From: a virus
IMG/VR virus record: IMGVR_UViG_3300031963_000009
Length of the DNA: 64,000 nt
Reading direction: 5' to 3' (one strand)
In this document: positions 4,739-36,392 of the stretch, piece by piece
Layout: every line of letters starts with the position of its first letter
Position numbering within the stretch: position 1 is the first letter of the stretch
The notes under the pieces: model-generated
Seen by the model: only the letters and a program-made list of their open reading frames with translations
Told to the model about the DNA's origin: nothing
The model's database searches: none
Translations under genes and position numbers: made by a program

Positions 4739-5051
4739 GTATTATTTCGGTCACTGCTTCCAGACTGGTTGGAGGGAGATGTGGAACAACTTCAAGATGT
4801 GGAGAGACCTCATTAGTGGAAATTATAAAGACTATGCCCTACTTTCAACTGATGACCCTTATGAAGAATGTTATCAATGGTTCTGGTGTAGTATCAATAT
4901 GGATGAAACTTATCCCAAAGAGTTTTTAGAATACTTGATGGAAATGTGTGATCGTATTGATCGTGGAGAAGAGAAATTGATTCCGTTGACTGAAGATTTT
5001 ATGGATGATTTGAAAAAAATGTTAGAAGAATCTAATGAAGAGGACACTTGA
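4713..5051 (+). CDS. Hypothetical protein
   Basis: 112-aa ORF; its stop lies inside the early element at 5042. Confidence 0.7.
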   Translation: MKTKLNWIEYYFGHCFQTGWREMWNNFKMWRDLISGNYKDYALLSTDDPYEECYQWFWCSINMDETYPKEFLEYLMEMCDRIDRGEEKLIPLTEDFMDDLKKMLEESNEEDT

Positions 5052-5098
5052 GGAACTGTCCATCGACCCTTGACTTTTACAACCAGAATCTTTATAGT
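5042..5098 (+). promoter_or_regulatory. Early element copy 1 (palindrome plus host-like promoter)
   Basis: GGACA-cttgaggaac-TGTCC, then TTGACT(5070)-17-TATAGT(5093); 50 bp from GAC to the -10. Confidence 0.8.
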
Positions 5099-5120
5099 AT
5101 GAATATACAAATCTAGATCA

Positions 5121-5678
5121 ATGACTTACAAAGCAACACTGAAAGTTCACTTTGATACTGAATGGACTCCTAGTTATGGTGGGTCTGGAATCTATGATGA
5201 TGAAACTCTTCCAGAGGAACATTATACCTTTGAGATTCCTTGTCATGACATCAATACCATTCAACTGTTCCGTTTCTTTGGAAATATTGCCCGAACAATG
5301 GGGCACTGTGAACAAGGTATTATGAAAGGAGCTTGTTCACTTGCATTTAATGATATGCGTGGTGAAGAAGAAATGCGTAAGGTTGCTGAAGAGTTTGATA
5401 TGAAACTTGCAGAAGATTATGCAAAAGAGTTTCGTAAGTTGGAAGATGAAATTTATGATCTGAAAGCTAAACTTTCTCGTCTCGAACAACCTGAGAATTC
5501 TCAATATACTGATGAAGAAATGGCAGCCATTACTCATCAGGAATGGAAAGGTCTTGTTCCTGGTAGCAATTCTGCTGTGATGAAGGGATGTAAGTGTCCT
5601 GTAATGGATAACGAAGAGATGCCTGAAGATCGTAAATGGGTAAATGGCGACTGCCCTCTACATGGTAAACAAAAATGA
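5121..5678 (+). CDS. Hypothetical multidomain protein with a C-terminal CxC...CxxH motif
   Basis: Directly downstream of the promoter; central coiled coil; GCKCPVMDN...DCPLHG. Confidence 0.75.
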   Translation: MTYKATLKVHFDTEWTPSYGGSGIYDDETLPEEHYTFEIPCHDINTIQLFRFFGNIARTMGHCEQGIMKGACSLAFNDMRGEEEMRKVAEEFDMKLAEDYAKEFRKLEDEIYDLKAKLSRLEQPENSQYTDEEMAAITHQEWKGLVPGSNSAVMKGCKCPVMDNEEMPEDRKWVNGDCPLHGKQK

Positions 5679-5860
5679 AACCTAACTTTCGTAAAGTCCT
5701 TAGTATGGCCCTTGAAGAAGGTGTCAGGTATGGATACAATCGTGCCCACAAACATGTAGAGAATCCACACGAAGATGCAGTGGTTGATCTAGTGGTTGAG
5801 GGTGCAATGAACTCTATCTACGAATGGTTTGAATTTGAGGAGAATCATGTCTCTGATTGA
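5675..5860 (+). CDS. Hypothetical protein
   Basis: MKPNFRKVLSMALEEGVRYGYNRAHKH; ATGA overlap. Confidence 0.7.
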   Translation: MKPNFRKVLSMALEEGVRYGYNRAHKHVENPHEDAVVDLVVEGAMNSIYEWFEFEENHVSD

Positions 5861-6194
5861 CACAATTAATCATTTCATTCAAGACCAAGAAGGACATCTT
5901 CAGTGTCTTGAATGGGATATTCGTGAAGAAACTAATCAAGAAGAACCACAACTTGATTGGTATTGTGAAGAGTATGACCTGTGTAAAGAACGCATAGAAC
6001 ATCTACAACAAATCAAATCTGAACTTGCTCGTCTTCAACGCTATGATGATGAACTTTCATCTGTAATGCCTGAGGACTACAAAGATTGGTGGCAGAACTC
6101 TAAGGAAGAGTGGCCTGAGGTTGCTAAAGGTTCTATTGAGAATCTACGTGAACGTGAAGAACTTGCTTGGAAACAACTGGAGGCACAACAATGA
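5847..6194 (+). CDS. Hypothetical protein; N-terminal half is a paralogue of 10702
   Basis: LEWDIREETN vs LSWEIREETN; GGAG upstream of the ATG at 5847. Confidence 0.7.
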   Translation: MSLIDTINHFIQDQEGHLQCLEWDIREETNQEEPQLDWYCEEYDLCKERIEHLQQIKSELARLQRYDDELSSVMPEDYKDWWQNSKEEWPEVAKGSIENLREREELAWKQLEAQQ

Positions 6195-6541
6195 GCGGCG
6201 GACACTTTAATGATTGTGGTTACGATTACTACAAGGTAGCACAGTTTGCTGATGAGTTGGAAGTAGAAATCCAAAACAACAACAAAAAACTGGATGAATA
6301 TGAGTATGCTCCCAATTTTTCACCAGAAACTATCAAGTATTTGAGGAAGCAACTTCGTCAGATGCGTAAGGTAGCAGAGATCATGAGGCATATTGATTAT
6401 CTGTATTCTGGTGATCATGGTGAAGATAGTTTTATGCATCGTGTAAAAGAAGTAGAGAAACACTGGGAGGAGATTGAAGAGATAGTTACACGCATGGATA
6501 ATCATCCAGATGGATGGAATGAAACTGGAGACGGTGTGTGA
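6191..6541 (+). CDS. Hypothetical protein
   Basis: MSGGHFNDCGYDYY...IDYLYSGDHGEDSF; GGAGG SD and ATGA overlap. Confidence 0.72.
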   Translation: MSGGHFNDCGYDYYKVAQFADELEVEIQNNNKKLDEYEYAPNFSPETIKYLRKQLRQMRKVAEIMRHIDYLYSGDHGEDSFMHRVKEVEKHWEEIEEIVTRMDNHPDGWNETGDGV

Positions 6542-6656
6542 AACTTCCATATGTGCTAAAATCGTGGTATTATCACATCACAGGATACTGGGAGAAGAAA
6601 CTACCACATCTGCCTGGTGCTAATTCTAAACAATTTTGGAACATTATTAACGGTAA

Positions 6657-6848
6657 TTGATTATGGTTGAGAAAGTAAAGTTTGTAACGGTCACTCGTGT
6701 GATTGATGACCGCAAAGGTATTCATTACCTGGATGCTATTGATGAGAATGGTATCCACTGGACTGCTGAATTGGATAACAAACAAGAGAAATGGTTAGTA
6801 TATACTAAACTATGGACTAGAGATCCTCAACATCCTTACGATTTATGA
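6657..6848 (+). CDS. Hypothetical protein
   Basis: 63-aa ORF coupled to the next gene. Confidence 0.6.
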   Translation: MIMVEKVKFVTVTRVIDDRKGIHYLDAIDENGIHWTAELDNKQEKWLVYTKLWTRDPQHPYDL

Positions 6849-7063
6849 AAAACTATCGTATCAAAAAAGTAACAGACGGACACTCAACCAGATATTATCC
6901 ACAACACAAAAGATATGGATTGTTTTGGTATAATCTATTTGTAGATGAATATAGGGATGGTGATTATTCTACATTTGAAGAAGCACAGTGGCACCTTTGC
7001 AACTATTTGAGAGAACCTGTGATAGAATATTTGTCCTTTGATTGTGATTGTGGAGAAAACTAA
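6845..7063 (+). CDS. Hypothetical protein (paralogue of 7382)
   Basis: YRI...YYPQ...F.EAQ...EPVIEY pattern shared with 7382-7585. Confidence 0.65.
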   Translation: MKNYRIKKVTDGHSTRYYPQHKRYGLFWYNLFVDEYRDGDYSTFEEAQWHLCNYLREPVIEYLSFDCDCGEN

Positions 7064-7163
7064 TGACTGAATGTGTGTCTGACCCAAAAACTTGGATTGA
7101 TGTGGCTCAACTAGCAGTTTTTATGGTTCCTGTCTCCATTTTTCTTTGGAGAGTATCACAATA

Positions 7164-7382
7164 ATGACCGACCTAAAACTCTGTAAGGATTGTAAGCACT
7201 ACAAGAAAGATTGGTTTGAGCATCTTACTGGTGGTGGAGACCGATTTGATATGTGCCTCAATCCAGTAGTGAGTGGCAATCTGGTGACTGGAAAAGTCAA
7301 AGGTGGTCGTTTTTGTGATATGATGAGATTGCCTTATGGTAGATGTGGTAATGAAGGTAAGTATTGGGAGGCACGGAAATAA
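7164..7382 (+). CDS. Small Cys-rich hypothetical protein
   Basis: CKDCKH...C...FCDMMR...CGNEGKYWE. Confidence 0.65.
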   Translation: MTDLKLCKDCKHYKKDWFEHLTGGGDRFDMCLNPVVSGNLVTGKVKGGRFCDMMRLPYGRCGNEGKYWEARK

Positions 7383-7585
7383 TGAAAGTTTATGATTACC
7401 GAATTGTAGAAGACCTCAATTTAAAAACTTTGAAACCTTATTTTTTCATTCAGTATTATCATCTTGCTGAAAAAAAATATATTCTTCACTCAGATGCTAC
7501 ATTCCAAACACTTCAAGAAGCACAAGAAGCAATACGACTACTGAGAAAATACAACGAACCTGTGTATCATTATGTTGAGGATTGA
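7382..7585 (+). CDS. Hypothetical protein
   Basis: TAATG overlap; GGAGG SD. Confidence 0.65.
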   Translation: MKVYDYRIVEDLNLKTLKPYFFIQYYHLAEKKYILHSDATFQTLQEAQEAIRLLRKYNEPVYHYVED

Positions 7586-7586
7586 A

Positions 7587-7760
7587 ATGATTGAAACTAA
7601 ACCAATTACGAACAGAAGACCAACAAAAGAAGATGCTAATGGATTTGGGTTAGTTCAGTATTATCGTAATGATTTTGGTGTATGGGGATATGATTACTGG
7701 TATAATGTAAGAACCGATGGTTGGGCACACACATCAAATTGGAGACCTCAAAATGATTGA
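7587..7760 (+). CDS. Hypothetical protein
   Basis: MIETKPITNRRPTKEDANGFGLVQY; GAGG SD. Confidence 0.6.
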   Translation: MIETKPITNRRPTKEDANGFGLVQYYRNDFGVWGYDYWYNVRTDGWAHTSNWRPQND

Positions 7761-7923
7761 AATTACCAAAAACTACAAACTCACACTCACAGAAGACCAA
7801 GCACGACAACTCCATTCTATGCTAAAAGCTAATAAGGAACTATTGGATATTGGGTCTGGGTATGACGAACTGCGACCACTTTATCGGGAACTAAAAGAAC
7901 TCTTTGATAATGGGATACGATGA
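7753..7923 (+). CDS. Hypothetical protein
   Basis: MIEITKNYKLTLTEDQARQL. Confidence 0.6.
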   Translation: MIEITKNYKLTLTEDQARQLHSMLKANKELLDIGSGYDELRPLYRELKELFDNGIR

Positions 7924-8096
7924 TTGAACCAACAGATACAGAAATCCTTGAGTTTCTACTCAATCAGTTCAAACCACATTCTCTTAAAATGAATGGTGAG
8001 AGTGATTGGGTGTTTATTAATAGTGGATTTCCTATGAATAGAGCAAAAGGTAAAAGTGCCCGTGATGCTGTGATTGCTGCTATGGAGGCAAAATGA
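7920..8096 (+). CDS. Hypothetical protein (58 aa, not in the ORF track)
   Basis: MIEPTDTEILEFLLNQF...AMEAK*; ATGA overlaps on both sides. Confidence 0.6.
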   Translation: MIEPTDTEILEFLLNQFKPHSLKMNGESDWVFINSGFPMNRAKGKSARDAVIAAMEAK

Positions 8097-8680
8097 CTGA
8101 AAGACTAAATCATAATCTTAATGTAGATACAATCAAAACAATTAAAGATGTGAAGAATATCTTTGATACTATGGAATTGGTTGCTTCTATGGATAAAGAT
8201 AATCCAAAATATGAAGTCGCAAAGGAATACTTTACAATTCCTTATGTTCCACCTGAACTTAAATTACCAACACCACGCAAGAGTATTGAAGAAATCCAAC
8301 AAGAACTGGATGAGAAGATTGATGCTCTCATAAAGGCAACAAAAGAAAAGTTTGATTGTTCCCAATATTTTGCTGGAAAAAGATATAACGAAAAGTTTGA
8401 TAGGATTATTCAGGACTTTGAGTATGCGAAGGAACACGGAAGCTTTCCACAAAAACTTACTCTTGGTTACTCCAAGTTTGATTACTCCAATTTTGTTGTG
8501 ACTGGTAGTTCTGTGGAATCCTCTTTTGTAATCAAACAGGGGAAAACCCACGAAGGTTATTATACGAATGGAAACCGTAGATATTTGAAGTATTATATGC
8601 CTGATAAACCGAATATGATTGTTCGTTTCTTTATGAAAACTTGTTTGGGCTTTGTGTGGGTTGATGAGAAGGACACTTGA
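8093..8680 (+). CDS. Hypothetical protein
   Basis: 195 aa; GGAGG SD; its stop lies inside early element 2. Confidence 0.75.
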   Translation: MTERLNHNLNVDTIKTIKDVKNIFDTMELVASMDKDNPKYEVAKEYFTIPYVPPELKLPTPRKSIEEIQQELDEKIDALIKATKEKFDCSQYFAGKRYNEKFDRIIQDFEYAKEHGSFPQKLTLGYSKFDYSNFVVTGSSVESSFVIKQGKTHEGYYTNGNRRYLKYYMPDKPNMIVRFFMKTCLGFVWVDEKDT

Positions 8681-8736
8681 AGAACTGGCACAGGGAGACC
8701 CCACAAGGTCTCCTATTGGTCTATAATACTCTCATA
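8671..8736 (+). promoter_or_regulatory. Early element copy 2
   Basis: GGACACTTGAAGAACTGGCACAGGGA, internal hairpin GGAGACC..GGTCTCC, TATAAT at 8722. Confidence 0.85.
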
Positions 8737-8749: not shown

Positions 8750-9079
8750 ATGATTGACCTCTCTCAACTGAATGTAGAACAACTCAAAGAACTTGAACTT
8801 CAAATTCAGAAACATAAGGAACAACAGAAGACAAAGGATGCTCTGGAAAATCTACAAGGTTATAAAGTAACTTTTTATATTAGGTTTGACCCTGAAAAGC
8901 ATAAGGATCACGATATGCTTACAAATAAAGGGAAACTTGACCCGAACATTTTTGCTGATTATCTGTGTGATAATCTTGTTACAGACCTGATTAGGGATTT
9001 TGAATTGTATGGTTATGAGGATGTGAGTTATCCTAATGTGGAAGTAGCAACAAAACAAGAAATTGAAGAGAAGTTTTGA
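8750..9079 (+). CDS. Hypothetical protein
   Basis: A single gene flanked by elements 2 and 3. Confidence 0.75.
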   Translation: MIDLSQLNVEQLKELELQIQKHKEQQKTKDALENLQGYKVTFYIRFDPEKHKDHDMLTNKGKLDPNIFADYLCDNLVTDLIRDFELYGYEDVSYPNVEVATKQEIEEKF

Positions 9080-9145
9080 GGACACTTGAAGAACTGGCAC
9101 AGGGACACTCCAAAGCCCCCTGTGATGCCTTATAATACTCTCATA
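9080..9145 (+). promoter_or_regulatory. Early element copy 3
   Basis: First 26 bp identical to copy 2; TATAATACTCTCATA at 9131 is also shared. Confidence 0.85.
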
Positions 9146-14661: not shown

Positions 14662-14803
14662 ATTTTATAAAGTTGGTTATATTCTAGACGAAGAACAAAA
14701 ATGGGCTTGTTATTTTGACTTTAATTGTGCTCAAGAAGCTATGATGAAGATGATTCGACTCGGTATAAATGTGACTGGAATGGAAACACAAATGATGGTG
14801 TGA
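14633..14803 (+). CDS. Hypothetical protein (56 aa)
   Basis: MKRNRSQITEFYKVGY...; its TGA is the TGA of GTGACAG in element 4. Confidence 0.5.
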   Translation: MKRNRSQITEFYKVGYILDEEQKWACYFDFNCAQEAMMKMIRLGINVTGMETQMMV

Positions 14804-14870
14804 CAGTCTGTTGGCTGTCCACTAACCACGCCGAAGGGGCTCAGATCTTGGTATCTTAGCCATGTTGAGA
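14798..14870 (+). promoter_or_regulatory. Early element copy 4
   Basis: GTGTGACAGTCTGTTGGCTGTCCAC..CGCCGA..CAGATCTTGG-TATCTT-AGCC-ATGTTGAGA. Confidence 0.88.
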
Positions 14871-16000: not shown

Positions 16001-16386
16001 TGAAACATCTGTTGATTCTTGTGTCTCTGTTGGTAACTTCTCCTGCATTTGCACAAACAAAAGAAGTCACTAAACAGAAAGTATATCGTCCTTTTACATA
16101 CGAAACTGCATGTGCATTGGAAACTCCTCAAGAGTTTCAAGTAGATACATGTAAAGTTGTGGAAACTAGGGAGTCTACTGGTGCTCTTCGCACTCGTAAT
16201 ATCTTCTCTAATCGTTTCCGTCTTACCATCAAATCTCGTTTTGATAAAGAAAAGGGATTTGTAACTTGGGATTCTCACAATAAGTTTGAGTACAAGTTTG
16301 AATATAAAGTTGGTGGTGTAGATGGCCTTGGTGCCTGGTCTTATGTAATGCCAGGATTCTTACTTGAGAATGTCTCATGGGACTGA
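16000..16386 (+). CDS. Secreted hypothetical protein
   Basis: Signal peptide MKHLLILVSLLVTSPAFA. Confidence 0.72.
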   Translation: MKHLLILVSLLVTSPAFAQTKEVTKQKVYRPFTYETACALETPQEFQVDTCKVVETRESTGALRTRNIFSNRFRLTIKSRFDKEKGFVTWDSHNKFEYKFEYKVGGVDGLGAWSYVMPGFLLENVSWD

Positions 16387-17167: not shown

Positions 17168-17257
17168 CAAAACATCAAAGACACGGACACAATCCCAACT
17201 CTTAATTGAGACGGTCAAAACTCCAAGTCCTAGATGCAAACCTTACAAACAAAAACC

Positions 17258-18637
17258 ATGAAAACTAACACCAAAACGTACACTCTGACTGTATCTCAAC
17301 TGGCTTCTCTACAAAAGGACACCAAGATTTATCTTGATGAAGCCTTCCAGTCCAATACACGTTGGAATACTGCAATGAATCAAGCATACATTAAGTCTGT
17401 GCTTGAAGGTAAAGCAATTACCCCCATTACTTTAGGTAAAATCTCTGATCTTTTGAGTTCTATTGAACTTCATTATGGTCCTACTCATTCTGACTATCAA
17501 TTTTTTAGGGATCTTCTAGATCAAGATTTCATCTATATCACGATTGATGGAAATAATCGTGATAACTGCATCTGCAAGTTCCTGAACAATGAGTTTCCCC
17601 TCTCTGAAGGGAAATACTATATTGAACACAATAACATTGTGTACTTTGAAGCGACTAAGAACAACAAGTATTTCAAAGATCTAGATGCAGAAGTTCGCAA
17701 CTACATTGAGAACATTTCTCTGAACACTCTTGTAGTTTTGCAATCTGATCGTAAGGGTCTTGCTGAACTGTTCAGTAACATTAATGAGGGTCTTCCCCTT
17801 AATAATCAAGAGAAACGCAACGCTACTCCTTGTCGTTTCGGTGCTCTTGTTAGGAATCTTGTTCAAAGTCACTTGAATGGATTTTCTATGTTGTATAGTT
17901 CTAAGAACATCAATCGTCGTTATCCCGATGAATTGGTTGTGACAATTTCCACAATCGTTGCTCATGGGATAAAGAATCTGGATAAGAATACTCTAGATGC
18001 TGCTTATGGTGATTCTACGGTTGAGGTTATTTCTTTCAACAAAACCGCAACTATTGTTGAACAACTTTCTAAGATTGTTGTCAACTATGGTGCTGCTGGA
18101 TTTGATGTTGGTGGTAAGAAAAACTCTAACCTGATTGACTTTGCAATGTTGTTGAACTATCTCAACAATAACTCGATTGTCATCGAAGATTACGAAGCTT
18201 TCTACAACTGGTTCACTGAAAGTCAGGGAGAACGAATTGAAGATCCTACCATTCTCTACTATGGTAAAAAGGGTAATAATCCTCGTAGTTATGCTGGTCT
18301 TCTCCGTGGATCTTCTTCCAATTTCCTTCAAATCCGACTCAGTAAGTTGGTTGATTCCATCTCTTCTACACCAGACAACGTTCTGACCTTCCGTGACAAA
18401 GATCGCAAGTATGATCCTAAGATTCGATTCTCTCTTTGGAAATCTCAGGGTGGGCGATGTGCATTGACTGGTGAACCTATTGATGCACGTCACATCTACG
18501 ATGGATCTGTGACTCATATCGACCATAAAGATCCTTGGTCGAAAGGTGGACAAACTACAGTTGAAAATGCACAACTGGTATTTGCAAATGCAAATCTCCG
18601 TAAAGGTGCTCAACTCGTAGAAGTTCCCTCTCTTTGA
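17258..18637 (+). CDS. DUF262/ParB-like plus C-terminal HNH endonuclease (GmrSD-like architecture)
   Basis: ITIDGNNR (DGQQR-like), FSNINEGLPLNNQEKRNA, and HIDHKDPWSKGG.T.VENAQ...AN.RKG. Confidence 0.8.
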   Translation: MKTNTKTYTLTVSQLASLQKDTKIYLDEAFQSNTRWNTAMNQAYIKSVLEGKAITPITLGKISDLLSSIELHYGPTHSDYQFFRDLLDQDFIYITIDGNNRDNCICKFLNNEFPLSEGKYYIEHNNIVYFEATKNNKYFKDLDAEVRNYIENISLNTLVVLQSDRKGLAELFSNINEGLPLNNQEKRNATPCRFGALVRNLVQSHLNGFSMLYSSKNINRRYPDELVVTISTIVAHGIKNLDKNTLDAAYGDSTVEVISFNKTATIVEQLSKIVVNYGAAGFDVGGKKNSNLIDFAMLLNYLNNNSIVIEDYEAFYNWFTESQGERIEDPTILYYGKKGNNPRSYAGLLRGSSSNFLQIRLSKLVDSISSTPDNVLTFRDKDRKYDPKIRFSLWKSQGGRCALTGEPIDARHIYDGSVTHIDHKDPWSKGGQTTVENAQLVFANANLRKGAQLVEVPSL

Positions 18638-18652: not shown

Positions 18653-18718
18653 ATAAGGATCTCTGATCAATGGCCCTCTTGCCCCGCAACGGGTAAGAGG
18701 GTATTCTAGCTATGTTGA
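18653..18718 (+). promoter_or_regulatory. Variant early promoter (GATC-type upstream motif, hairpin, -10, ATGTTGA)
   Basis: ATAAGGATCTCTGATCAAT, stem CCCTCTTGCCC/GGGTAAGAGGG, TATTCT(18702)-AGCT-ATGTTGA. Confidence 0.72.
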
Positions 18719-18729
18719 AACGCAATTCA

Positions 18730-18870
18730 ATGAATCTCCGACCACACCAAGAACGTGCAGTTGAGGTAATGCAACTGCATAAAAAGGGTCAAATCATTGT
18801 TCCCACTGGTGGTGGTAAAACAATGAAGATGATCAAAGACGCAATGATTCAATTCCAGGAACAGAAATGA
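18730..18870 (+). CDS. N-terminal fragment of an SF2 helicase (Q-motif and Walker A), not in the ORF track
   Basis: MNLRPHQERAVEVMQLHKKGQIIVPTGGGKTMKMIKDAMIQFQEQK*; its stop overlaps the ATG at 18867. Confidence 0.78.
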   Translation: MNLRPHQERAVEVMQLHKKGQIIVPTGGGKTMKMIKDAMIQFQEQK

Positions 18871-19976
18871 TCGAAATGCAATCACAAACTGAAAAAACGA
18901 TTGTTGTTGTTGCTCCTCGTATTCTTCTCGCAGAACAACTTTGTTCCGAGTTTCTGGAGTTTATCACCAACGCAAGTGTGATGCACGTTCACAGTGGTGA
19001 AACTCATCACTTTTCGACTACCAAACCCCAAGAGATTTCTAACTGGTGGGTGAATACTCGTGGTCACAAACTAATCTTCACCACTTACAACTCTCTGGAG
19101 AGGTTGCAACAATCTCGCATCAAGGTTGACACCATTTACTTTGACGAAGCTCACAACTCCGTCAAACGCAACTTCTTCCCTGCAACTGAATACTTCAGTC
19201 AGGAAGCTGACCGTTGTTACTTCTTCACTGCGACTCCCAAACATTCACTCGCAGTTGGTAAGCCTGGGATGAATGATGTAGAAGTTTATGGCCAAGTCAT
19301 TTGTAATGTTCCTGCACCTGAACTTGTCGAAGGTGGTTACATCCTGCCTCCGAAAGTTATCGCAAAACAACTTCCGATGGTAAAGTCTGGTAAGATTCCT
19401 GCAGATCGTGACTGTGAGAATCTGATTGAGACTCTGGATGAATGTGGTAAGGGTAAAGTGTTGATCTGTGCGAAAGCTACCAAACAGATCTCTGCACTGA
19501 TGTCTGAGACTGACTTCATTCAACAACTGCAAGATCGCGGATTCTCTTACCTCTACATCACCGCAAAGACTGGTGCAATTATTGATGGTAAGAAGGTGAA
19601 TCGTGAGGTGTTCTTTGATACTCTCTCTGCATGGGGTAAGGATGACTCTAAGAAGTTCGTTGTTCTCCACCACTCCATCCTTTCTGAGGGTATCAATGTG
19701 TCAGGTCTGGAAGGTGTCATCTTTATGCGTTCGATGGACTACATTGGTATCTCCCAAACCATCGGCCGTGTGATTCGGATGCACCATGATGATGCAGCTC
19801 GCATCCATAGTGGTGAACTTGTCCCTGGTGATGTTGACAACTATACCAAATCTTTCGGTCTAGTTGTTGTTCCTGTCTTCAACAAAGTTGGGATCTCTAC
19901 TCACCAGAAGATCCAAGCTGTGGTGGATACGATCTTCCAAAAAGGAATGCCCGCTATTTCTGTCGTAAAACGATGA
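18867..19976 (+). CDS. SF2 (DEAD/DEAH, ResIII-like) helicase body lacking Walker A
   Basis: VVVAPRILLAEQL (Ia), YFDEAHN (II), FTATP (III), ILSEGINV (V), SQTIGRVIR (VI). Confidence 0.88.
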   Translation: MIEMQSQTEKTIVVVAPRILLAEQLCSEFLEFITNASVMHVHSGETHHFSTTKPQEISNWWVNTRGHKLIFTTYNSLERLQQSRIKVDTIYFDEAHNSVKRNFFPATEYFSQEADRCYFFTATPKHSLAVGKPGMNDVEVYGQVICNVPAPELVEGGYILPPKVIAKQLPMVKSGKIPADRDCENLIETLDECGKGKVLICAKATKQISALMSETDFIQQLQDRGFSYLYITAKTGAIIDGKKVNREVFFDTLSAWGKDDSKKFVVLHHSILSEGINVSGLEGVIFMRSMDYIGISQTIGRVIRMHHDDAARIHSGELVPGDVDNYTKSFGLVVVPVFNKVGISTHQKIQAVVDTIFQKGMPAISVVKR

Positions 19977-21507: not shown

Positions 21508-21897
21508 ATGATGTACCCCAACACAAGTATTCTTGATCCCGACAATGGCCCTACTGGATTTACCACTCCAGACTTCCAATTTGCTGCTATTCCATTTGGA
21601 AAAGAATACATGATCATTGCAGATGGCCAACAACTTGAAGTAGTCAAAACAAGACAACTTGCAGAGATTCGGCTTGAACAATTAAAAAACTCGCATCGGA
21701 CTCTGAAGAAGGGTACTAAGACCCCTGCACCACCAAAATCACAAAAAAAGGCGAAAACGTCTAGTGGCCGCAAGGGGTCTCAGGGACCAAAGCCAAAGGC
21801 CACCAAGGGTTCTACCAAGTCTCCTAAATCTAAGAGTGTGACAGTCAAGAAACCGTACACTCTTCATCCAAATCCATTGATGGATGCACTACTCTAG
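21508..21897 (+). CDS. Hypothetical protein with a Lys/Ser/Pro-rich basic tail
   Basis: C-terminal TLKKGTKTPAPPKSQKKAKTSSGRKG...KSPKSKSVTVKK. Confidence 0.72.
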   Translation: MMYPNTSILDPDNGPTGFTTPDFQFAAIPFGKEYMIIADGQQLEVVKTRQLAEIRLEQLKNSHRTLKKGTKTPAPPKSQKKAKTSSGRKGSQGPKPKATKGSTKSPKSKSVTVKKPYTLHPNPLMDALL

Positions 21898-21912
21898 CTA
21901 TAGTTCAGAAAA

Positions 21913-24266: not shown

Positions 24267-24335
24267 TGTGACGCTTTGAGAACTGTCACAGGGGCTCTTT
24301 ACAGAGCCCCTTTTTGCATGTATTGTGGCTACATG
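24267..24335 (+). promoter_or_regulatory. Early element copy 5 with an embedded terminator-like hairpin
   Basis: TGTGAC-gctttgagaact-GTCACA, GGGGCTCT-ttac-AGAGCCCC-TTTTT, TATTGT(24321), ATG 6 nt later. Confidence 0.8.
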
Positions 24336-25277
24336 AAGAACACTCACCTCGAACATCCCGAAGATTCTGTACTTCTCGGTAAGAAGGCTGTGCAGGATAC
24401 TATCAACTATCTGCGTAACTGCAAAGGTGATTGTAGTGTGAAGTATGATGGTGCTCCTGCCATTGTGTTTGGGACGCATCCTGTCACTAATCAATTCTTT
24501 GTAGGGACGAAAAGTGTATTCAATAAGAAGAAAGTTAAGGTTAATTATACTCACGCTGACATCGAAAAGAATCACGGTAATAATTCCAAAGTTGCAGGAA
24601 TACTTCACACTTGCCTTGAAGTATTGCCTAAGTTGGAGGGTGTTTACCAAGGTGATTTTATTGGGTTTGGTGGTACTAACCGATTCACCCCTAATACTAT
24701 CACTTATACCTTCAATACCGATAGCGATTCTTTTCGTAATTGTTCTGTGGTCTTTGCTGCTCATACACGGTATTCTGGAGATACGTCATGCGTTGAAGGT
24801 TCGGAGAACCCGCTCAACAAACTGAGTGCATCTTTTGATGTTCCTGAGTATCTCAAACACAACTTTATGTCAACTTACTTTGTGAATGGTGATGCACAAT
24901 TTACCTCCCGTCGTCGTAGGATTGATTACCTTCTTGGCCTTGCAAGTTTGGTTAGCAATTTTGTTAGATACCCTGAAGAAAAAGAAGTAGCAAATCTCAA
25001 AGTTGCGATCAATAAGTGCATCCGAGAGAATGTTCCTGTTGATTGTATTGACGGCAATCTTCTCCTGTTGTTCAACCTGTTGACCAAAGCCAAGGATTTG
25101 ATTGTAGAAGGAATCACCGTCACTGGTGATCAAGTTGATGCAGTGATTGATCTCGGTGTGGATTATGTTGCGTCTGGCCATGAAGGTTATGTTCACTCTA
25201 ATGATTATGGGACTTTCAAGTTAGTCAACCGTCGTATGTTCTCTTACTTTAACTTCACCAAACCAAAAGGTTGGTAG
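24333..25277 (+). CDS. Nucleotidyltransferase/ligase-like phage protein (DUF6267-like)
   Basis: MKNTHLEHPED, KYDGAPA (KxDG motif I), HEGYV, FKLVNR..FS..NF. Confidence 0.7.
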   Translation: MKNTHLEHPEDSVLLGKKAVQDTINYLRNCKGDCSVKYDGAPAIVFGTHPVTNQFFVGTKSVFNKKKVKVNYTHADIEKNHGNNSKVAGILHTCLEVLPKLEGVYQGDFIGFGGTNRFTPNTITYTFNTDSDSFRNCSVVFAAHTRYSGDTSCVEGSENPLNKLSASFDVPEYLKHNFMSTYFVNGDAQFTSRRRRIDYLLGLASLVSNFVRYPEEKEVANLKVAINKCIRENVPVDCIDGNLLLLFNLLTKAKDLIVEGITVTGDQVDAVIDLGVDYVASGHEGYVHSNDYGTFKLVNRRMFSYFNFTKPKGW

Positions 25278-25347
25278 GGACAGTTGCCTGGCTGTCCACC
25301 AGAGGCGCCAGGATCGTTCCTGGCATCGTATCTTAGCTATGTTGAGA
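25277..25347 (+). promoter_or_regulatory. Early element copy 6
   Basis: GGGACAGTTGCCTGGCTGTCCAC..GCCAGGA-tcgt-TCCTGGC..TATCTT-AGCT-ATGTTGAGA. Confidence 0.88.
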
Positions 25348-26866: not shown

Positions 26867-26938
26867 GTGTGACGGTTGGCGGACTGGACACCAAACCCGC
26901 CAACCGCAGCCAGATCCTGTATCTTGGCCATGTTGAGA
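26867..26938 (+). promoter_or_regulatory. Early element copy 7
   Basis: GTGTGACGGTTGGCGGACTGGACAC..CCGCCAA..CAGATCCTG-TATCTT-GGCC-ATGTTGAGA. Confidence 0.85.
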
Positions 26939-26948: not shown

Positions 26949-27110
26949 ATGCGAATCGACATCCGTTGTCCTGCTGCTCCCTGGGAGAATCACACCACTG
27001 ATCTAGACAGAGCATACGACATCGCATACAATTTGAGTGAAGAATACCAGTGTGATGTTGACCTCTACTACAACACCACTGGCACACTTTACACCACTGT
27101 TTCTGCCTGA
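26949..27110 (+). CDS. Small hypothetical protein (53 aa)
   Basis: MRIDIRCPAAPWENHTTDLDRAYDIAYNLSEEYQCDVDL. Confidence 0.65.
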   Translation: MRIDIRCPAAPWENHTTDLDRAYDIAYNLSEEYQCDVDLYYNTTGTLYTTVSA

Positions 27111-28061: not shown

Positions 28062-28134
28062 GTGTGACAATCCCCAAACCGCACACCAATTCAACCAAAG
28101 GTGGCCATGAGGATGTATCTTAGCTATGTTGAGA
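28062..28134 (+). promoter_or_regulatory. Early element copy 8
   Basis: GTGTGACAATCCCCAAACCGCACAC...TATCTT(28116)-AGCT-ATGTTGAGA. Confidence 0.8.
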
Positions 28135-28773: not shown

Positions 28774-28845
28774 TGTGACAGTCTGCGGGCTGTCCACTGA
28801 TCGTGCCGAAGGGGGCTGTGGCCCTGTATCTTAGCCATGTTGAGA
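28774..28845 (+). promoter_or_regulatory. Early element copy 9
   Basis: TGTGACAGTCTGCGGGCTGTCCAC..TGCCGAAGGGGGCTGTGGCCCTG-TATCTT-AGCC-ATGTTGAGA. Confidence 0.88.
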
Positions 28846-29698: not shown

Positions 29699-29771
29699 AT
29701 GTGCCAGTTGGCGGGCTGTCCACCAAATCCGCCAAAGGGGCTCAGGGCCCTGTATCTTAGCCATGTTGAGA
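29699..29771 (+). promoter_or_regulatory. Early element copy 10
   Basis: GTGCCAGTTGGCGGGCTGTCCAC..CCGCCAAAGGGGCTCAGGGCCCTG-TATCTT-AGCC-ATGTTGAGA. Confidence 0.88.
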
Positions 29772-30692: not shown

Positions 30693-30848
30693 ATGGTCGT
30701 TCACTTCTATGAAGGTCAGTCTTACTCTTGGGAGTATTCCAACCGCAGCTATGATGATAGCGGATGCTGGGAGGATTATCTGACTGCCGATGAGTATGAA
30801 GATGCTCTAGATCGTAAGCGGTTTGAGCAATCAAATCGAGACTGGTAG
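30693..30848 (+). CDS. Small acidic protein (51 aa)
   Basis: MVVHFYEGQSYSWEYSNR...; its TAG abuts element 11. Confidence 0.55.
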   Translation: MVVHFYEGQSYSWEYSNRSYDDSGCWEDYLTADEYEDALDRKRFEQSNRDW

Positions 30849-30916
30849 GCCAATTCACTGGCTGCACACTAAAGCTGCCGAGTGCAGCCAGAACCTGTAT
30901 CTTGGCCATGTTGAGA
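30848..30916 (+). promoter_or_regulatory. Early element copy 11
   Basis: GGCCAATTCACTGGCTGCACAC..TGCCGA..CAGCCAGAACCTG-TATCTT-GGCC-ATGTTGAGA. Confidence 0.85.
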
Positions 30917-30930
30917 GGAATCGCTCCCCA

Positions 30931-31983: not shown

Positions 31984-32052
31984 GTGTGACAATCGGGTGG
32001 CTGTCCACTGATCCCGCCGAGAGGGCCCGTTAGGCCCTATATTGGCCACATG
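31984..32052 (+). promoter_or_regulatory. Early element copy 12
   Basis: GTGTGACAATCGGGTGGCTGTCCAC..CCGCCGA..TATATT-GGCCAC-ATG. Confidence 0.85.
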
Positions 32053-32100
32053 AGGGAGAGGGAACGACCTCCCCCCACCAAACCATTCTCCGCTCAAACC

Positions 32101-32415
32101 ATGCGTAAGATCGAAACTCTGATGAACCAGGCCATCCAGAAAGAAATCGACTGGAAGCTGGACAACACTGAAGTAATCAGCTGCTCCAACGTTTCTGATG
32201 TCTACCTGCATGGCAACCTGATTGCTCGTATCGGTGAAACTTGGATGGAACTGTTTGACGGTGGCTGGCAGACTGCTACCACCAAGTCCCGTCTGAATGC
32301 TATTCTCTCTGCACACGGCTGCCCTGGTGAGCGTGTCTTCCAACAGAAAGGCCAGTGGTTCATCACCATCAACGGAGCTAAGGTTCCTTTCTTCTCGGGT
32401 ATGCGTCTGAACTGA
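32101..32415 (+). CDS. Conserved phage hypothetical protein
   Basis: MRKIETLMNQAI...VYLHGNLIA...DGGWQTATTKSRLNAIL; an in-frame upstream ATG exists at 32050. Confidence 0.75.
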   Translation: MRKIETLMNQAIQKEIDWKLDNTEVISCSNVSDVYLHGNLIARIGETWMELFDGGWQTATTKSRLNAILSAHGCPGERVFQQKGQWFITINGAKVPFFSGMRLN

Positions 32416-32573: not shown

Positions 32574-32578
32574 TTACG

Positions 32579-32740: not shown

Positions 32741-32746
32741 CAAATT

Positions 32747-32914
32747 ATGGCTAAAGATTCTACAATGGTTGAAACTGAATACTACGAGCTTCCGCTTGAT
32801 TTTTATCTGAAGTGTGAGTTCATTGCTGCTCAATTAGAGGTCACAGTTGATTACCTTCTGGAGGAGTTTTACGATGATGGTGAACTCATTGTGCCAAACT
32901 TTGTGCAGGAATGA
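32747..32914 (+). CDS. Small acidic protein (55 aa)
   Basis: CEFIAAQLEVTVDYLLEEF. Confidence 0.55.
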   Translation: MAKDSTMVETEYYELPLDFYLKCEFIAAQLEVTVDYLLEEFYDDGELIVPNFVQE

Positions 32915-32923
32915 GCAACAATA

Positions 32924-32992
32924 GGACAGTCTGATGGCTGTCCACTAAATACGCCGCACCCAGCCAGAACTGGTATCTTAGCCATGTTGAGA
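32924..32992 (+). promoter_or_regulatory. Early element copy 13
   Basis: GGACAGTCTGATGGCTGTCCAC..CGCCGCA..CAGCCAGAACTGG-TATCTT-AGCC-ATGTTGAGA. Confidence 0.88.
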
Positions 32993-33010
32993 GATTCAAC
33001 CGAACCCCAA

Positions 33011-33142
33011 ATGTTCACAATCACCTATCAAGTTCCCTACAACAACTGTGAGTGGCGGACTCAAAGCTTCAAGACTCTCGCTGAAGCAGAGTCGATGATA
33101 GCTTTCTACCGCTCCTGTGGTTCACCTGCTAAACTTGTCTGA
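33011..33142 (+). CDS. Small hypothetical protein (43 aa)
   Basis: MFTITYQVPYNNCEWRTQSFKTLAEAESMIAFYRSCGSPAKLV. Confidence 0.62.
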   Translation: MFTITYQVPYNNCEWRTQSFKTLAEAESMIAFYRSCGSPAKLV

Positions 33143-33144
33143 TC

Positions 33145-33381
33145 ATGAAAACTTTAACTCTTCAAGTTACAGACGTTGAGTTTGATTTTGATGATGAAGA
33201 TTTTACGATTGAAGAGCAACTAGAAGTTATCAGCTCTGTCGTTGGTAACACCTTTGAGGTTGAAGTTGATGATGACGATGATGATGAAGCCATCGCACAT
33301 TGTCTAGTTGAAGAGGTGACAGATGCCACTGGTTGGTGTGTCTTCTCTCTTAATTTTGTTCACATTCTTAACACTCACTGA
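33145..33381 (+). CDS. Highly acidic hypothetical protein
   Basis: VTDVEFDFDDEDF...EVDDDDDDE...EEVTDATGWCV. Confidence 0.7.
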   Translation: MKTLTLQVTDVEFDFDDEDFTIEEQLEVISSVVGNTFEVEVDDDDDDEAIAHCLVEEVTDATGWCVFSLNFVHILNTH

Positions 33382-33382
33382 C

Positions 33383-33529
33383 ATGCGAATCGCTCTTCTG
33401 ATTGCTACTCTTGCTCTTGGGCTGAAGACTGGTCTTGCTGCTCATGCGACTGTGAATGCTTATCAAGAAGCACAAGCCGAACGGATGTGCCAGATTGATC
33501 CAAGCTACTGCGGACTGAAGCAAAAATAG
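33383..33529 (+). CDS. Small secreted/membrane peptide (48 aa)
   Basis: MRIALLIATLALG...CQIDPSYC; its TAG abuts element 14. Confidence 0.58.
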   Translation: MRIALLIATLALGLKTGLAAHATVNAYQEAQAERMCQIDPSYCGLKQK

Positions 33530-33594
33530 GACAGTTGGATGGCTGTCCACTCAATCCGCCGAACCGACCCGTTTGGCCCTATATTGGCCACATG
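33529..33594 (+). promoter_or_regulatory. Early element copy 14
   Basis: GGACAGTTGGATGGCTGTCCAC..CCGCCGA..TATATT-GGCCAC-ATGAAGAAC. Confidence 0.88.
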
Positions 33595-33918
33595 AAGAAC
33601 GAAACCGCTCAAATGTCACTTTTCTCCCAAGGCTGGAAAGCTGAAGTCTACTTCGGTAGCGAGTTGACTGCTCATCATATGAACACCCGTTCGGTGTATC
33701 GTTTCAAGGAGAATGCCAATGTGAGCATCACTCACTCCGGAAAGTATGCTGAGAATGGAACTGTGGATGTGTTCGCAGTTTCTATTCGTGAGGAGATCAA
33801 TCCTCGTCACTCTGTGACACAAACTGTTGAGACTTTTGATAACTGGTTGGACGCATACTACTGCGGTGTTCAGTGTGTCAACAATCTGAACAGCGACATT
33901 CTCGCTGCTCAATGCTGA
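33592..33918 (+). CDS. Hypothetical protein (probably leaderless)
   Basis: The ATG is 6 nt after the -10; MKNETAQMSLFSQGW. Confidence 0.7.
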   Translation: MKNETAQMSLFSQGWKAEVYFGSELTAHHMNTRSVYRFKENANVSITHSGKYAENGTVDVFAVSIREEINPRHSVTQTVETFDNWLDAYYCGVQCVNNLNSDILAAQC

Positions 33919-33934
33919 TCGGTTAGGGTTAGGT

Positions 33935-34004
33935 GGGACAGTCATCTGGCTGTCCACCAAATCCGCCGAGACCAGCCACCTGATGTATTCTAGCCATGTT
34001 GAGA
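33935..34004 (+). promoter_or_regulatory. Early element copy 15
   Basis: GGGACAGTCATCTGGCTGTCCAC..CCGCCGA..TATTCT-AGCC-ATGTTGAGA. Confidence 0.88.
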
Positions 34005-34018
34005 GGAATCCGAACCGA

Positions 34019-34195
34019 ATGAAAGTCTACGCTGTGATCGCTGGAATTGATTACGAAGGCGAAGTGTTTGATACTCTGCGCCTGTTCGATTGCAAGTCTG
34101 CCGCAGAAGCATATGAGGCAGAACTTGATGCAAACTATGATTATACCCTGATGGAAGCCCGTGAGGTGATCATGGAATCTGCAATCGCTGCTTGA
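34019..34195 (+). CDS. Hypothetical protein (58 aa)
   Basis: MKVYAVIAGIDYEGEVFDTLRLFDCKSAA. Confidence 0.68.
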   Translation: MKVYAVIAGIDYEGEVFDTLRLFDCKSAAEAYEAELDANYDYTLMEAREVIMESAIAA

Positions 34196-34197
34196 TC

Positions 34198-34359
34198 ATG
34201 AAAAACTATCGAGTTCGTGTTGAGACTTATGATGGCTGTGTCACGATTTGGTATGAGAAATCCAAGGCCAAATCCGCAGACAAATTGATTCTCAATCGTG
34301 TCTACAATCAGCTCTGTGGGCTGAATGTCAAAGAAATCGAAGTTACTCCTTCCGTCTGA
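34198..34359 (+). CDS. Hypothetical protein (53 aa)
   Basis: MKNYRVRVETYDGCVTIWYEKSK. Confidence 0.62.
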   Translation: MKNYRVRVETYDGCVTIWYEKSKAKSADKLILNRVYNQLCGLNVKEIEVTPSV

Positions 34360-34386
34360 ACTTTTCACACTAATTAACACAAACTC

Positions 34387-34560
34387 ATGAATCGCCAAGA
34401 ACTTCAAGATCAGCTCATTCAGACAATCCTCGATGGTATGGATCTGAAATGTTTGCTTCAAATGTGTTACGATGTGATGGATGAGAATTATGATAAGTAT
34501 TCGGATGAAGAATTGATTACTGAATGTGAAGAATACTATCCCGAACTTCTAGAGGGCTGA
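34387..34560 (+). CDS. Small acidic protein (57 aa)
   Basis: MNRQELQDQLIQTILDGMDLKCL...EEYYPELLEG. Confidence 0.62.
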   Translation: MNRQELQDQLIQTILDGMDLKCLLQMCYDVMDENYDKYSDEELITECEEYYPELLEG

Positions 34561-34631
34561 TTCGCCATTCGCAAATAGAGAATGAGATGCGCTCTAAAGA
34601 CACTCAAACTCACCAACACCAACACACTCAA

Positions 34632-34757
34632 ATGATCGCAACTCGTAAAGACTTCTTCATCGCTGTGCTTGATCAGTTTGCTACTAATGGTAACGAACTT
34701 CTGCAACTTCTGGATGACATTGTGAACGGCGAATGTGAATGCTATCTTGAAGACTGA
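34632..34757 (+). CDS. Small protein (41 aa), paralogue of 34797
   Basis: ATNGNELLQLLDDI. Confidence 0.55.
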   Translation: MIATRKDFFIAVLDQFATNGNELLQLLDDIVNGECECYLED

Positions 34758-34796
34758 TTAACTGTTCATTTCTTACACTTTTTCTTCTTTTCTCTC

Positions 34797-34964
34797 ATGA
34801 CTCTTCAATCTGCAATCGCTCAACTTCGCGCTGCTCGCAACGGCGCTGAAATGCTCCAAGTTCTCGACATGCTCGCACAAGACTCTGTAGGTTACACCTA
34901 TGCCGAGTCCCCACAAATCGCCAAGGTTCTCGGAGTGCCCACACTTGAAGCTGTAGAGCTCTGA
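34797..34964 (+). CDS. Small protein (55 aa)
   Basis: ARNGAEMLQVLDML. Confidence 0.55.
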   Translation: MTLQSAIAQLRAARNGAEMLQVLDMLAQDSVGYTYAESPQIAKVLGVPTLEAVEL

Positions 34965-34973
34965 TGGTATAAT

Positions 34974-35000
34974 AAAGGGGGCTCACATCCCCCCCTTTTT
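34974..35000 (+). terminator. Intrinsic terminator-like hairpin
   Basis: AAAGGGGG-ctcacatc-CCCCCTTTTTT. Confidence 0.6.
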
Positions 35001-35002
35001 GT

Positions 35003-35167
35003 ATGACTGATACGGAGAAACTTCTCGAACTTTCAGAGTTAATCAGACAGATCATCTTTGCTCTAGAGATGACACAATACGAAATCTCCGATTCACAACA
35101 AAAGAATAATGTTCTAGAACTCTCTGAGATCTATCACCAGAAGATGATTGCTATTCTAACCACATGA
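35003..35167 (+). CDS. Hypothetical protein (54 aa)
   Basis: MTDTEKLLELSELIRQIIFALEMTQYEI. Confidence 0.5.
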   Translation: MTDTEKLLELSELIRQIIFALEMTQYEISDSQQKNNVLELSEIYHQKMIAILTT

Positions 35168-35473
35168 AGAAACACCATCTGATTGTTGCTTCAATCATCC
35201 CAGCTATCCTACTCACATTCGCAACGATTCGTGATAGCTGCGCAAACCCCGATTATGCCAATTACTTCACAGAATCATGCAAAACAAAGTAGAAAACTGG
35301 GTGGACAATCTAACACTCACACAACAACAAAAAGTTTACAACGAGATCGTGGATTATTTCACAAGTGAGGTGATTAAAGAGGTGTTATCAAAGTATGACA
35401 ATTCTCTTGACATTGAACATCTAAACGTATAAAATAGTAACGTACTTTCATTCACACTTAAGGACACACACTT

Positions 35474-35659
35474 ATGCAAACCATCAACAACAAAGTTACA
35501 CGTTACAGAGTTACCTTGGACTTTACAGTTGATACATCTAACTGTGTAAGTCCTAAAGAATGGAATTGGGCTTCACTTCTCGAACTCGGTAACAACGAAT
35601 CAGTCAATGAGGTTTATGTAGAGAACCTCGGAGAATATACCACTCGTAGGAGTAAGTAA
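35474..35659 (+). CDS. Hypothetical protein
   Basis: AAGGA SD; RYRVTLDFTVD...PKEWNWASLLEL. Confidence 0.68.
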   Translation: MQTINNKVTRYRVTLDFTVDTSNCVSPKEWNWASLLELGNNESVNEVYVENLGEYTTRRSK

Positions 35660-35808
35660 TGGACCTCACTACCGCTCACCCTTACGGGGAAGAAAGTTTG
35701 TTCGATTTTGAACAAGAGATCAATGATCAGTATGCTGCTCAGTATGATGAAGATATGATCTTCGATGATTACTCTAGTGGCATAGATGCTGAGAGTTATG
35801 ATCCTTGA
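35659..35808 (+). CDS. Small acidic protein (49 aa)
   Basis: TAATG overlap; AGGAG SD. Confidence 0.5.
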   Translation: MDLTTAHPYGEESLFDFEQEINDQYAAQYDEDMIFDDYSSGIDAESYDP

Positions 35809-35831
35809 TTGATCTCTGATTGTTTATACTG

Positions 35832-36137
35832 TTTTCCACAGCTTTATGATACCTTTGTGGAAAAAGCTGTGGAAAACAAGCCATTAAAAAAAGGCTAAAA
35901 AAATCAAGCTTGTGTGAAAGCTTTCTCGTTTATGTTCTCTCTGTGGCCCCTCTGATGGCTTATAAAAAAGCCTCTGAGACCTTGTAATCTTAGCGGGCAG
36001 GCTATCACACGACCGCATAAATGTCAAGAGACCCCCCACATAAGTCTCCGGGACCACACAGTTTGAGCAACATAAGGTCTCACAGTTTCTTATAGTTTTC
36101 CACAGCACTTGTGGAAAAAGTCTATAAGTTTTCCACA
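35832..36137. promoter_or_regulatory. Cluster of six perfect TTTTCCACA (cyanobacterial DnaA-box) nonamers
   Basis: 35832(+), 35856(-), 35868(-), 36096(+), 36110(-), 36129(+), all in non-coding DNA. Confidence 0.75.
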
Positions 36138-36174
36138 GTCTTATGAGCACTCTAAGTCCCCCACATCTCGGAGC

Positions 36175-36203
36175 TTGACATAAGCTCTCTGAGGCCTTAT
36201 AAT
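36175..36203 (+). promoter_or_regulatory. Perfect consensus sigma70 promoter
   Basis: TTGACA-17-TATAAT; the -35 sits inside the inverted repeat GAGCTT-gacat-AAGCTC. Confidence 0.85.
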
Positions 36204-36206
36204 AAC

Positions 36207-36283
36207 TCTGTGGGAGTGCATAAAGGGGCTGAGTGCTTAAGCTCTTTGAGCCGGCTTAAGTAAAGCTCAAGCCACAAAGACTC
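36207..36283 (+). ncRNA. Candidate structured small RNA or leader
   Basis: Non-coding, directly after the consensus promoter; nested pairings TGTGG/CCACA, GCTGAG/CTCAAGC and TGCTTAAGC/GCTTAAGTA. Confidence 0.35.
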
Positions 36284-36323
36284 ATGAGCCTACCATAGAA
36301 CCTTGACAACTGAGATACACAAT

Positions 36324-36392
36324 GGACACTTATCTAACTGGCCACAGAATGTGCCAGAGGGAGCCAGATCCCGTATATTAGCCATGTTGAGA
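36324..36392 (+). promoter_or_regulatory. Early element copy 16
   Basis: GGACACTTATCTAACTGGCCAC..TGCCAGA..GCCAGATCCCG-TATATT-AGCC-ATGTTGAGA. Confidence 0.85.

Follow-up and report, generated by a model that had tools for sequence, protein, structure and literature searches.

T4-like cyanophages kill a large share of ocean and lake picocyanobacteria, and the question here is which factor reads their early promoters. Doron et al. 2016 reportedly described a novel element that regulates early genes in phages Syn9 and P-TIM40 and that many T4-like cyanophages carry in abundance. Here we compare with this and other described systems a repeated unit, built around a two-armed palindrome (dyad) and a -10 box, that recurs in 64,000 nt of viral DNA from IMG/VR record IMGVR_UViG_3300031963_000009. 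This whole stretch, called the window below, comprises bases 40205-104204 of a 111-kb contig with a completeness estimate of 52%.

Possible parallels are offered by the MotA/AsiA middle promoters of T4 and by NtcA-type promoters of cyanobacteria, in which a -10 box is likewise combined with an upstream protein site that replaces the -35 box. Both sites differ from the phage dyad in sequence and position: the MotA box is found at -30, and the NtcA site, GTA-N8-TAC, has its centre at -41.5. T4-like cyanophages are without motA and asiA (PMC5780444). The promoter stem-loop (PeSL) cassettes of T4-type coliphages and vibriophages consist of a stem-loop terminator and a near-consensus TTGACA-N17-TATAAT promoter (Arbiol 2010, PMC2839356; Comeau 2014, PMC4122927). 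On the host side, yfr2 small-RNA promoters of marine picocyanobacteria carry CGRE1, the site of the regulator PlmA (PMM1637) (Lambrecht et al. 2018, PMC6191309). Binding of PMM1637/PlmA to CGRE1 was demonstrated in vitro by pull-down and gel shift, and the promoter-proximal CGRE1 half-site ends 55-57 nt upstream of the transcription start (PMC6191309).

Anatomy of a putative promoter unit

An earlier reading of the DNA, made from its letters alone (the sequence-only reading), had listed 16 copies of the unit, all of which are present on the + strand. Twelve are near-identical (class A) and four are divergent (5042, 8671, 9080 and 24267), in a nearly gap-free alignment. A hidden Markov model built from the 12 tight copies recovered those 12 with E values of 1e-16 to 1e-22, and nothing further at E<0.05 in the whole 111-kb contig. 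Units precede groups of small + strand genes. From 5′ to 3′, the parts of the unit are the dyad GTGMCAG-N8-CTGKMCAC, a GC-rich spacer of 29 nt, a -10 box (TATCTT, in most copies after TG) and a leader of 13 nt, RGCYATGTTGAGA. Alignment of 88 distinct instances gave the consensus tgtG(A/C)CAgT(T/C)-N4-(G/A)(G/A)CTGt(C/A)CAC, followed by ..aa...cgCC(a/g), a spacer with ~61% G+C, (T/G)G, TATCTT and (A/G)GC(C/T)ATGTTGAGA. TG stands immediately 5′ of the -10 box in 75 of the 88 instances, as in extended -10 promoters, and conservation in the clade alignment is highest in the right arm.

The -10 box starts 52-53 nt past the GTG of the left arm; the distance of 49-51 bp given earlier is obtained only by counting from GGACAG. 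The centre of the two-armed site lies ~40 nt upstream of the -10 box, roughly at -53 from the predicted start. As had been claimed, no TTGACA is found at the -35 slot of the clade consensus. Where a CCGCC[G/A]A box had been proposed, this slot holds CGCC(A/G), which is moderately conserved in the clade (~1.5 bits for two C positions). When the units were scanned for the sigma-70 consensus, only two reached 9/12, at 24267 (TTTACA-17-TATTGT) and 36324 (GTGCCA-17-TATATT). The features of the alignment support a reading of the units as promoters without a TTGACA -35 box and with a sequence-specific two-armed upstream site.

Changes in one arm of the dyad are not matched in the other. At columns 25/42, the pairs found in the 88 instances are A-T (31), C-T (18), A-G (14), A-C (12), C-C (11) and C-G (2), columns 24/43 form a G-A mismatch in 27 instances, and no compensatory changes between the arms were observed in this set. 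Because the arms are conserved as sequence but vary independently, they would represent two half-sites for a dimeric DNA-binding protein rather than an RNA or cruciform stem, and the dyad fits a site for such a dimer.

Conservation among T4-like cyanophages

An exact 19-mer made up of the -10 box and leader occurs in 64 stretches on ~45 IMG/VR contigs. The dyad lies outside this query, and 76 of the 78 distinct 19-mer instances have a dyad at the fixed distance. In the reverse search, which started from the dyad, TAnnnT was found at 50-56 nt in 112 of 121 relatives' dyads. The leaders that go with these 121 dyads are ~75 of the RGCYATGTTGAGA type, ~12 of the RGCCACATGARRA type (as at 31985 and 33527 in the window) and ~8 of a leftward type, TAGGCT CATGAKYCTYTGT. 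We built a scoring matrix from the relatives' dyads only, with the window copies excluded. Tight copies scored 20-38 bits and divergent copies 9-20 bits, against a background of maxima from 20 shuffled genomes with a mean of 11.9 bits and a top value of 19.2 bits, and a TAnnnT box lies 52-54 nt past the matrix start in every window copy.

By the gene content of the window, the source is an uncultured T4-like cyanophage. The window encodes 2-oxoglutarate-Fe(II) oxygenases, a superfamily 2 (SF2) helicase, a DUF6267 protein and ~110 small + strand open reading frames (ORFs), followed by gp25, gp6 and giant structural ORFs, in a gene order that matches Syn9 at 43-61 kb and S-PM2 at 2-29 kb. The closest cultured phages by DNA are Synechococcus phages DSL-LC02, S-CREM1 and S-PM2, in short stretches only. 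Syn9 carries copies of the unit at 43113, 44774, 46292, 47204, 48558, 49078 and 52994, in the syntenic small-gene region; they score 10-23 bits with the clade matrix, have TAnnnT at 52-55 nt, and are followed by a downstream box of their own, ATAAGAGTCAAAG, not by RGCYATGTTGAGA. S-PM2 has several + strand matrix matches with TAnnnT at 52-55 nt in its own small-gene region, for example at 16226, 16509, 19355, 20116, 20397, 22260 and 23418. Among the matches listed for the perfect canonical 22-bp dyad (GTGMCAGTT-N4-AACTGKCAC), which came from at least 120 IMG/VR stretches, a TAnnnT at 50-54 nt accompanies 61 of 73 distinct dyads on one side or both (both in 18), and the offsets between dyad and TAnnnT show a sharp peak at 51-53. 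Since relatives, Syn9, S-PM2 and the IMG/VR dyads agree, a dyad with a -10 box at 52±1 nt is a class-wide signal of T4-like cyanophages.

The identical architecture of Syn9 and S-PM2 in the syntenic region places the units in the cyanophage early-promoter class, as the sequence-only reading had proposed. Judged from Syn9's own sequence, this is the early-gene element class reportedly described by Doron et al. 2016. Host range, phage type and a place before small genes upstream of the gp25/gp6 baseplate genes are shared with that element, and Syn9's own copies likewise have a dyad and a -10 box at a fixed 52-53 nt without TTGACA. In contrast, the present clade has TATCTT, a CGCC box and the 13-nt RGCYATGTTGAGA, where Syn9 has ATAAGAGTCAAAG. 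What is new here is a derived clade form of a known promoter class, with its own leader. The sequence alignments indicate that the leader and CGCC box are clade-specific, and that dyad, distance and -10 box are fixed. The earlier suggestion that box and leader go beyond the published motif is borne out in part, in a comparison with the Syn9 sequence. The window thus adds a freshwater- or estuarine-looking clade in which the dyad, distance and -10 box of the unit stay fixed while the leader and -35 slot drift.

A host half-site at the same register

No psbA was found in the contig, so the Syn9 PsbA protein served as the query through which host genomes were reached. The host set consisted of 44 yfr2 genes from 34 picocyanobacterial genomes, identified with Rfam Cyano-1 (RF01701). 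Their promoters show a 21-22 nt palindrome, CAACTG(G/T)CAC-N1-2-GTG(A/C)CAGTTG, in agreement with PMC6191309. The phage left arm, tgtG(A/C)CAgTT, equals the promoter-proximal half-site of CGRE1, GTG[A/C]CAGTT[G], over 9-10 nt and in identical orientation. When the 44 promoters were scanned with the phage matrix, in most loci the best host match fell 58-64 nt ahead of the point where the Rfam match begins, and in 9 host loci the score was higher than at any of 117,000 background positions. When one mismatch was allowed, 23 of the 44 promoters had a forward half-site at -63 to -69 from the conserved GTGAGG, compared with 1 per kb elsewhere, and the host -10 signal has its maxima at -12 and -14 from the same GTGAGG. 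These positions put 51-53 nt between the start of the host half-site and the -10 box, compared with 52-53 nt in the phage.

The likeness between the two sites covers half-site sequence, orientation, the 51-53 nt to the -10 box and the lack of a canonical -35 box. They differ in the placement of the second arm. In CGRE1 (CAACTGKCAC-N1-2-GTGMCAGTTG), the partner lies upstream and the GTG ends are central, giving a site of 21-22 nt, whereas in the phage site (GTGMCAGTT-N4-(R)RCTGKCAC) the partner lies downstream and the GTG ends face outward, giving 22-23 nt. An upstream partner in the CGRE1 style is present in 7 host loci and a partner arm at the phage-like position, -52/-53, in 4 host promoters; locus L195 has a direct repeat, and many host promoters have a single half-site. 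In 5 host genomes, the 23-bp form of the full phage dyad had zero matches and the 22-bp form occurred at chance level, no more commonly than a control pattern. On this lack of enrichment, the idea that the phage dyad is an exact copy of a host site was rejected. Our literature search found no paper connecting CGRE1 with phages.

A second class of host promoters was seen in marine Synechococcus (loci L159, L162, L163, L165, L166, L178 and L197), where a full CGRE1 lies at about -40 to -19 from GTGAGG and overlaps the -35 region. Several yfr2 promoters of this class also have a half-site or phage-like dyad further upstream. One regulator may activate from one yfr2 position and repress from another.

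Candidate readers of the dyad

We consider it reasonably probable that the units are early-class promoters of a T4-like cyanophage, read via a dimeric protein at the dyad for which host PlmA is the best candidate. In such a scheme, host RNA polymerase with its primary sigma factor would read the extended -10 box, and a dimeric protein present already at infection would bind the dyad at ~-53 and substitute for the missing -35 contact. The best candidate for this protein would be PlmA, a regulator of the GntR family. The conserved leader, at the predicted start site, would contribute GAGAGG as a ribosome-binding stretch, 18-21 nt ahead of most start codons. On the sites compared above, PlmA appears to be a well-founded candidate for the reader, not a proven one. 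A further step can be offered only tentatively: PlmA might turn on early transcription, phages having copied the proximal half-site of yfr2 at its exact register and added a promoter-side arm. The first minutes would then be coupled to host nitrogen, carbon and light via PII-PipX-PlmA, and the leader would add RNA-level or start-site control in the present clade.

Several points weigh against a PlmA-read early promoter. Transcript starts are predicted from sequence only, and identity with the published motif depends on Syn9's own sequence. The arm arrangements of CGRE1 and the phage site differ, and one rigid dimer would not be able to fit both. Across the 5 host genomes, the full phage dyad shows no enrichment, and its best-conserved part, the right arm, is without a counterpart in most host promoters. 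The sequence-only reading had placed a dimeric activator at about -55. A two-armed site at ~-53 whose arms do not covary fits the dimer, but sequence does not separate activation from repression.

In an alternative reading, the dyad would be the site of a phage protein that comes in with the virion or is synthesised early, and that either activates early promoters or turns them off later; the dyad's likeness to the host half-site would then reflect convergence, or ancestral borrowing with no present role for PlmA. The outward arrangement, in which the half-sites are spaced by 14 bp, does not exceed chance level in the 5 host genomes and is abundant in viral contigs, and the right arm is the most conserved part. 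The clade variants TGTCCAC and TGTCAC are what would be expected of a site that co-evolves with a phage protein, and early genes need switching off too, for which a site-specific phage repressor would serve. Yet early promoters must fire ahead of any phage protein synthesis, no GntR domain is encoded in the contig, itself 52% complete, and half-site, orientation and the 51-53 nt register match host yfr2, where 4 promoters have the partner arm at -52/-53. We regard a phage reader as unlikely, though a serious contender. For the PlmA reading, a half-site held in common with a host promoter of known binding protein, at equal register, reduces the question to a few bench experiments.

Proposed recombination and hairpin roles

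In the sequence-only reading, the units were likened to PeSL cassettes and seen as recombination substrates. As intergenic promoter units repeated through variable regions of small genes in a T4-like phage, they do resemble PeSLs, and it could be argued that they are promoter-terminator cassettes of this type, with a main role in shuffling modules between related phages. Gene order is mostly collinear with that of relatives, with many cassette differences, some of which end at units (30885-30924, 26868 and 33934). The window unit at 30885-30924 corresponds to a unit-cassette-unit arrangement in relative L058, homology to relatives resumes exactly at 26868 and 33934, and the genes at 27104 and 33139 stand side by side in L042, L046 and L057. 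In a breakpoint comparison with relatives that are only 70-90% identical, 38 breakpoints fell at units against 12 expected by length, a 3-fold excess (p 3e-10). This enrichment vanishes against ordinary gene junctions: endpoints number 3.0 per 182 bp (0.0165/bp) at unit junctions and 1.46 per 104 bp (0.0141/bp) at unit-free junctions, and on this comparison the claim of a recombination substrate is not supported. The promoter parts differ as well, since the phage units have neither the TTGACA-N17-TATAAT of PeSLs nor a stem-loop terminator. The arms, leader and fixed distance show strong, sequence-specific conservation, which points first to a transcription signal. A recombination role of the units is possible, but that it should be their main one we find improbable.

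The spacer had been described as often forming a hairpin. It folds no better than shuffles (mean z -0.36, with z<-1.5 in 10% of the 88 instances), and on this mean a spacer hairpin was rejected as a general feature. Real spacer hairpins exist in a few copies (25276, 33527, 31985, 8669 and 24267), and only that at 24267 is terminator-like. That the palindrome itself works as RNA or single-stranded DNA, forming a hairpin at which transcripts that read through from the upstream cassette are processed or terminated, is very improbable. The dyad region does fold better than its shuffles (mean z -1.96), as expected for any palindrome, and the dyad often overlaps the upstream stop codon, but the lack of covariation at columns 25/42 and 24/43 in the 88 instances speaks against an RNA hairpin role, no T run follows the dyad, and Rfam families gave zero matches in the whole window. 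These negative results on the hairpin and recombination ideas are a further contribution of the window.

The leader and downstream start codons

Most start codons lie 18-21 nt past the leader ATG, which puts the GAGAGG stretch at Shine-Dalgarno distance. The leader ATG and the downstream ORF share a reading frame in 75 of 123 instances; counted by protein family, the figure is 16 of 26 (p 0.003 versus one third). As a rule, however, use of this ATG as a leaderless start was rejected, since orthologues switch frame within families and the GAGAGG spacing alone predicts ~50% in frame. The exception is the ORF at 32050, which does begin at the leader ATG. Candidate roles for the invariant ATGTTGAGA are a start site with initial transcribed sequence, a shut-off operator, or the target of a translational repressor such as RegA. 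A 7-mer, GTTGAGA, that is common to the phage leader and the Prochlorococcus Yfr2 loop was judged a chance match.

Individual copies in the window

All window copies in this section lie on the + strand. The class A unit at 14799-14870 has the dyad TGTGACAGT-N6-GGCTGTCCAC, a spacer, TATCTT at 14852 and the leader AGCCATGTTGAGA (E 1.8e-20; 33.0 bits). At 25276-25347 (31.8 bits), the spacer contains a real hairpin, CCAGGA/TCCTGG, with z -2.99. Further class A units are found at 26868-26938 (31.2 bits), at 28063-28134, where the right arm is weaker (CCGCACAC; 24.1 bits), and at 28774-28845 (36.6 bits). The left arm of the unit at 29700-29771, GTGCCAGTTG, is exactly the host CGRE1 half-site (37.9 bits). 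The unit at 30846-30916 is single in the window; at the corresponding place, L058 has unit, cassette and unit. Class A dyads with TATATT lie at 31985-32056, where the leader is of a second type (GGCCACATGAGGG) and the ORF 32050-32415 begins at the leader ATG, and at 33527-33598, with the leader GGCCACATGAAGA. The remaining class A units are those at 32922-32992 (31.3 bits), 33934-34004 (-10 box TATTCT; 33.0 bits) and 36322-36392, which has TATATT and whose dyad, 36322-36345, doubles for a leftward promoter (see below).

The divergent copies have the 22-bp canonical dyad, GGACACTT-N4-AACTGKCAC, or a one-mismatch form, GTGACGCTT-N4-AACTGTCAC. Their -10 box is TATAAT, TATAGT or TATTGT, and the ATGTTGAGA leader is absent. 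In the unit at 5040-5098 (18.4 bits), which is without the class A leader, the dyad is GGACACTT-GAGG-AACTGTCC and TATAGT lies at 5093. The unit at 8669-8727 (14.7 bits on the minus strand) has GGACACTT-GAAG-AACTGGCAC, a 7-bp spacer hairpin and TATAAT at 8722, and the stop codon of the upstream ORF falls within its dyad. TATAAT lies at 9131 in the unit at 9078-9136 (20.5 bits on the minus strand). The fourth, at 24267-24326, combines the dyad GTGACGCTT-TGAG-AACTGTCAC with a terminator-like hairpin and T run at 24290-24311 and TATTGT at 24321.

The variant dyad GGACACTTGAAGAACTGGCAC, present in the window at 8669-8692, 9078-9101 and 5040-5063, is also found at gene ends in the ORFanage region of S-PM2 (NC_006820), at ~5099, 8596, 9876 and 11370. 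The S-PM2 copies have no -10 box after the dyad on the scoring strand. In two of the window copies, the stop TGA of the upstream ORF is inside CTTGA.

Though all 16 listed copies are real, the list had overlooked a degenerate copy, a partial copy and the leftward promoter at the 36322 dyad. The degenerate full copy, the 17th, spans 21837-21908 and consists of TGTGACAGTCAAGAAACCGTACAC, TACTCT at 21890 and AGCTATAGTTCAGA (24.7 bits). The partial copy, at 18702-18720, has TATTCT and AGCTATGTTGAAA after a hairpin and is without a dyad. It lies just upstream of the SF2 helicase gene (ResIII/DEAD/Helicase_C) at 18730-19976, in the small-gene region. Inside the same region, 17234-18637 encodes a protein of 467 aa that has an HNH domain at its C terminus.

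The distal end of the early region

The leftward promoter that would share the dyad at 36322-36345 lies at 36274-36292 on the - strand, with a -10 box, TAGGCT, at 36292-36287, 53 nt away from where the minus-strand matrix match to the dyad starts, and the leader CATGAGTCTTTGT. This arrangement of promoter, leader and the first ~125 nt downstream recurs in 10 relatives' loci. A stem predicted in the leftward transcript (36157-36292, - strand) shows almost no covariation. The transcript would run antisense over a perfect rightward TTGACA-N17-TATAAT promoter (36175-36203, + strand). From its sequence, this region looks like a small-RNA or antisense pair beside a cluster of DnaA boxes.

The cluster consists of six copies of TTTTCCACA, which we take to be the cyanobacterial DnaA-box consensus, within 306 bp at 35832-36137, where no + strand ORF lies. 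Across the entire window, TTTTCCACA has 7 matches against 1.46 expected, and no shuffle reached 7. The distal end of the early region also has two near-perfect host-type sigma-70 promoters, at 35407-35435 (TTGACA-17-TAAAAT) and at 36175-36203 (TTGACA-17-TATAAT), of the kind reported to drive Syn9 middle genes.

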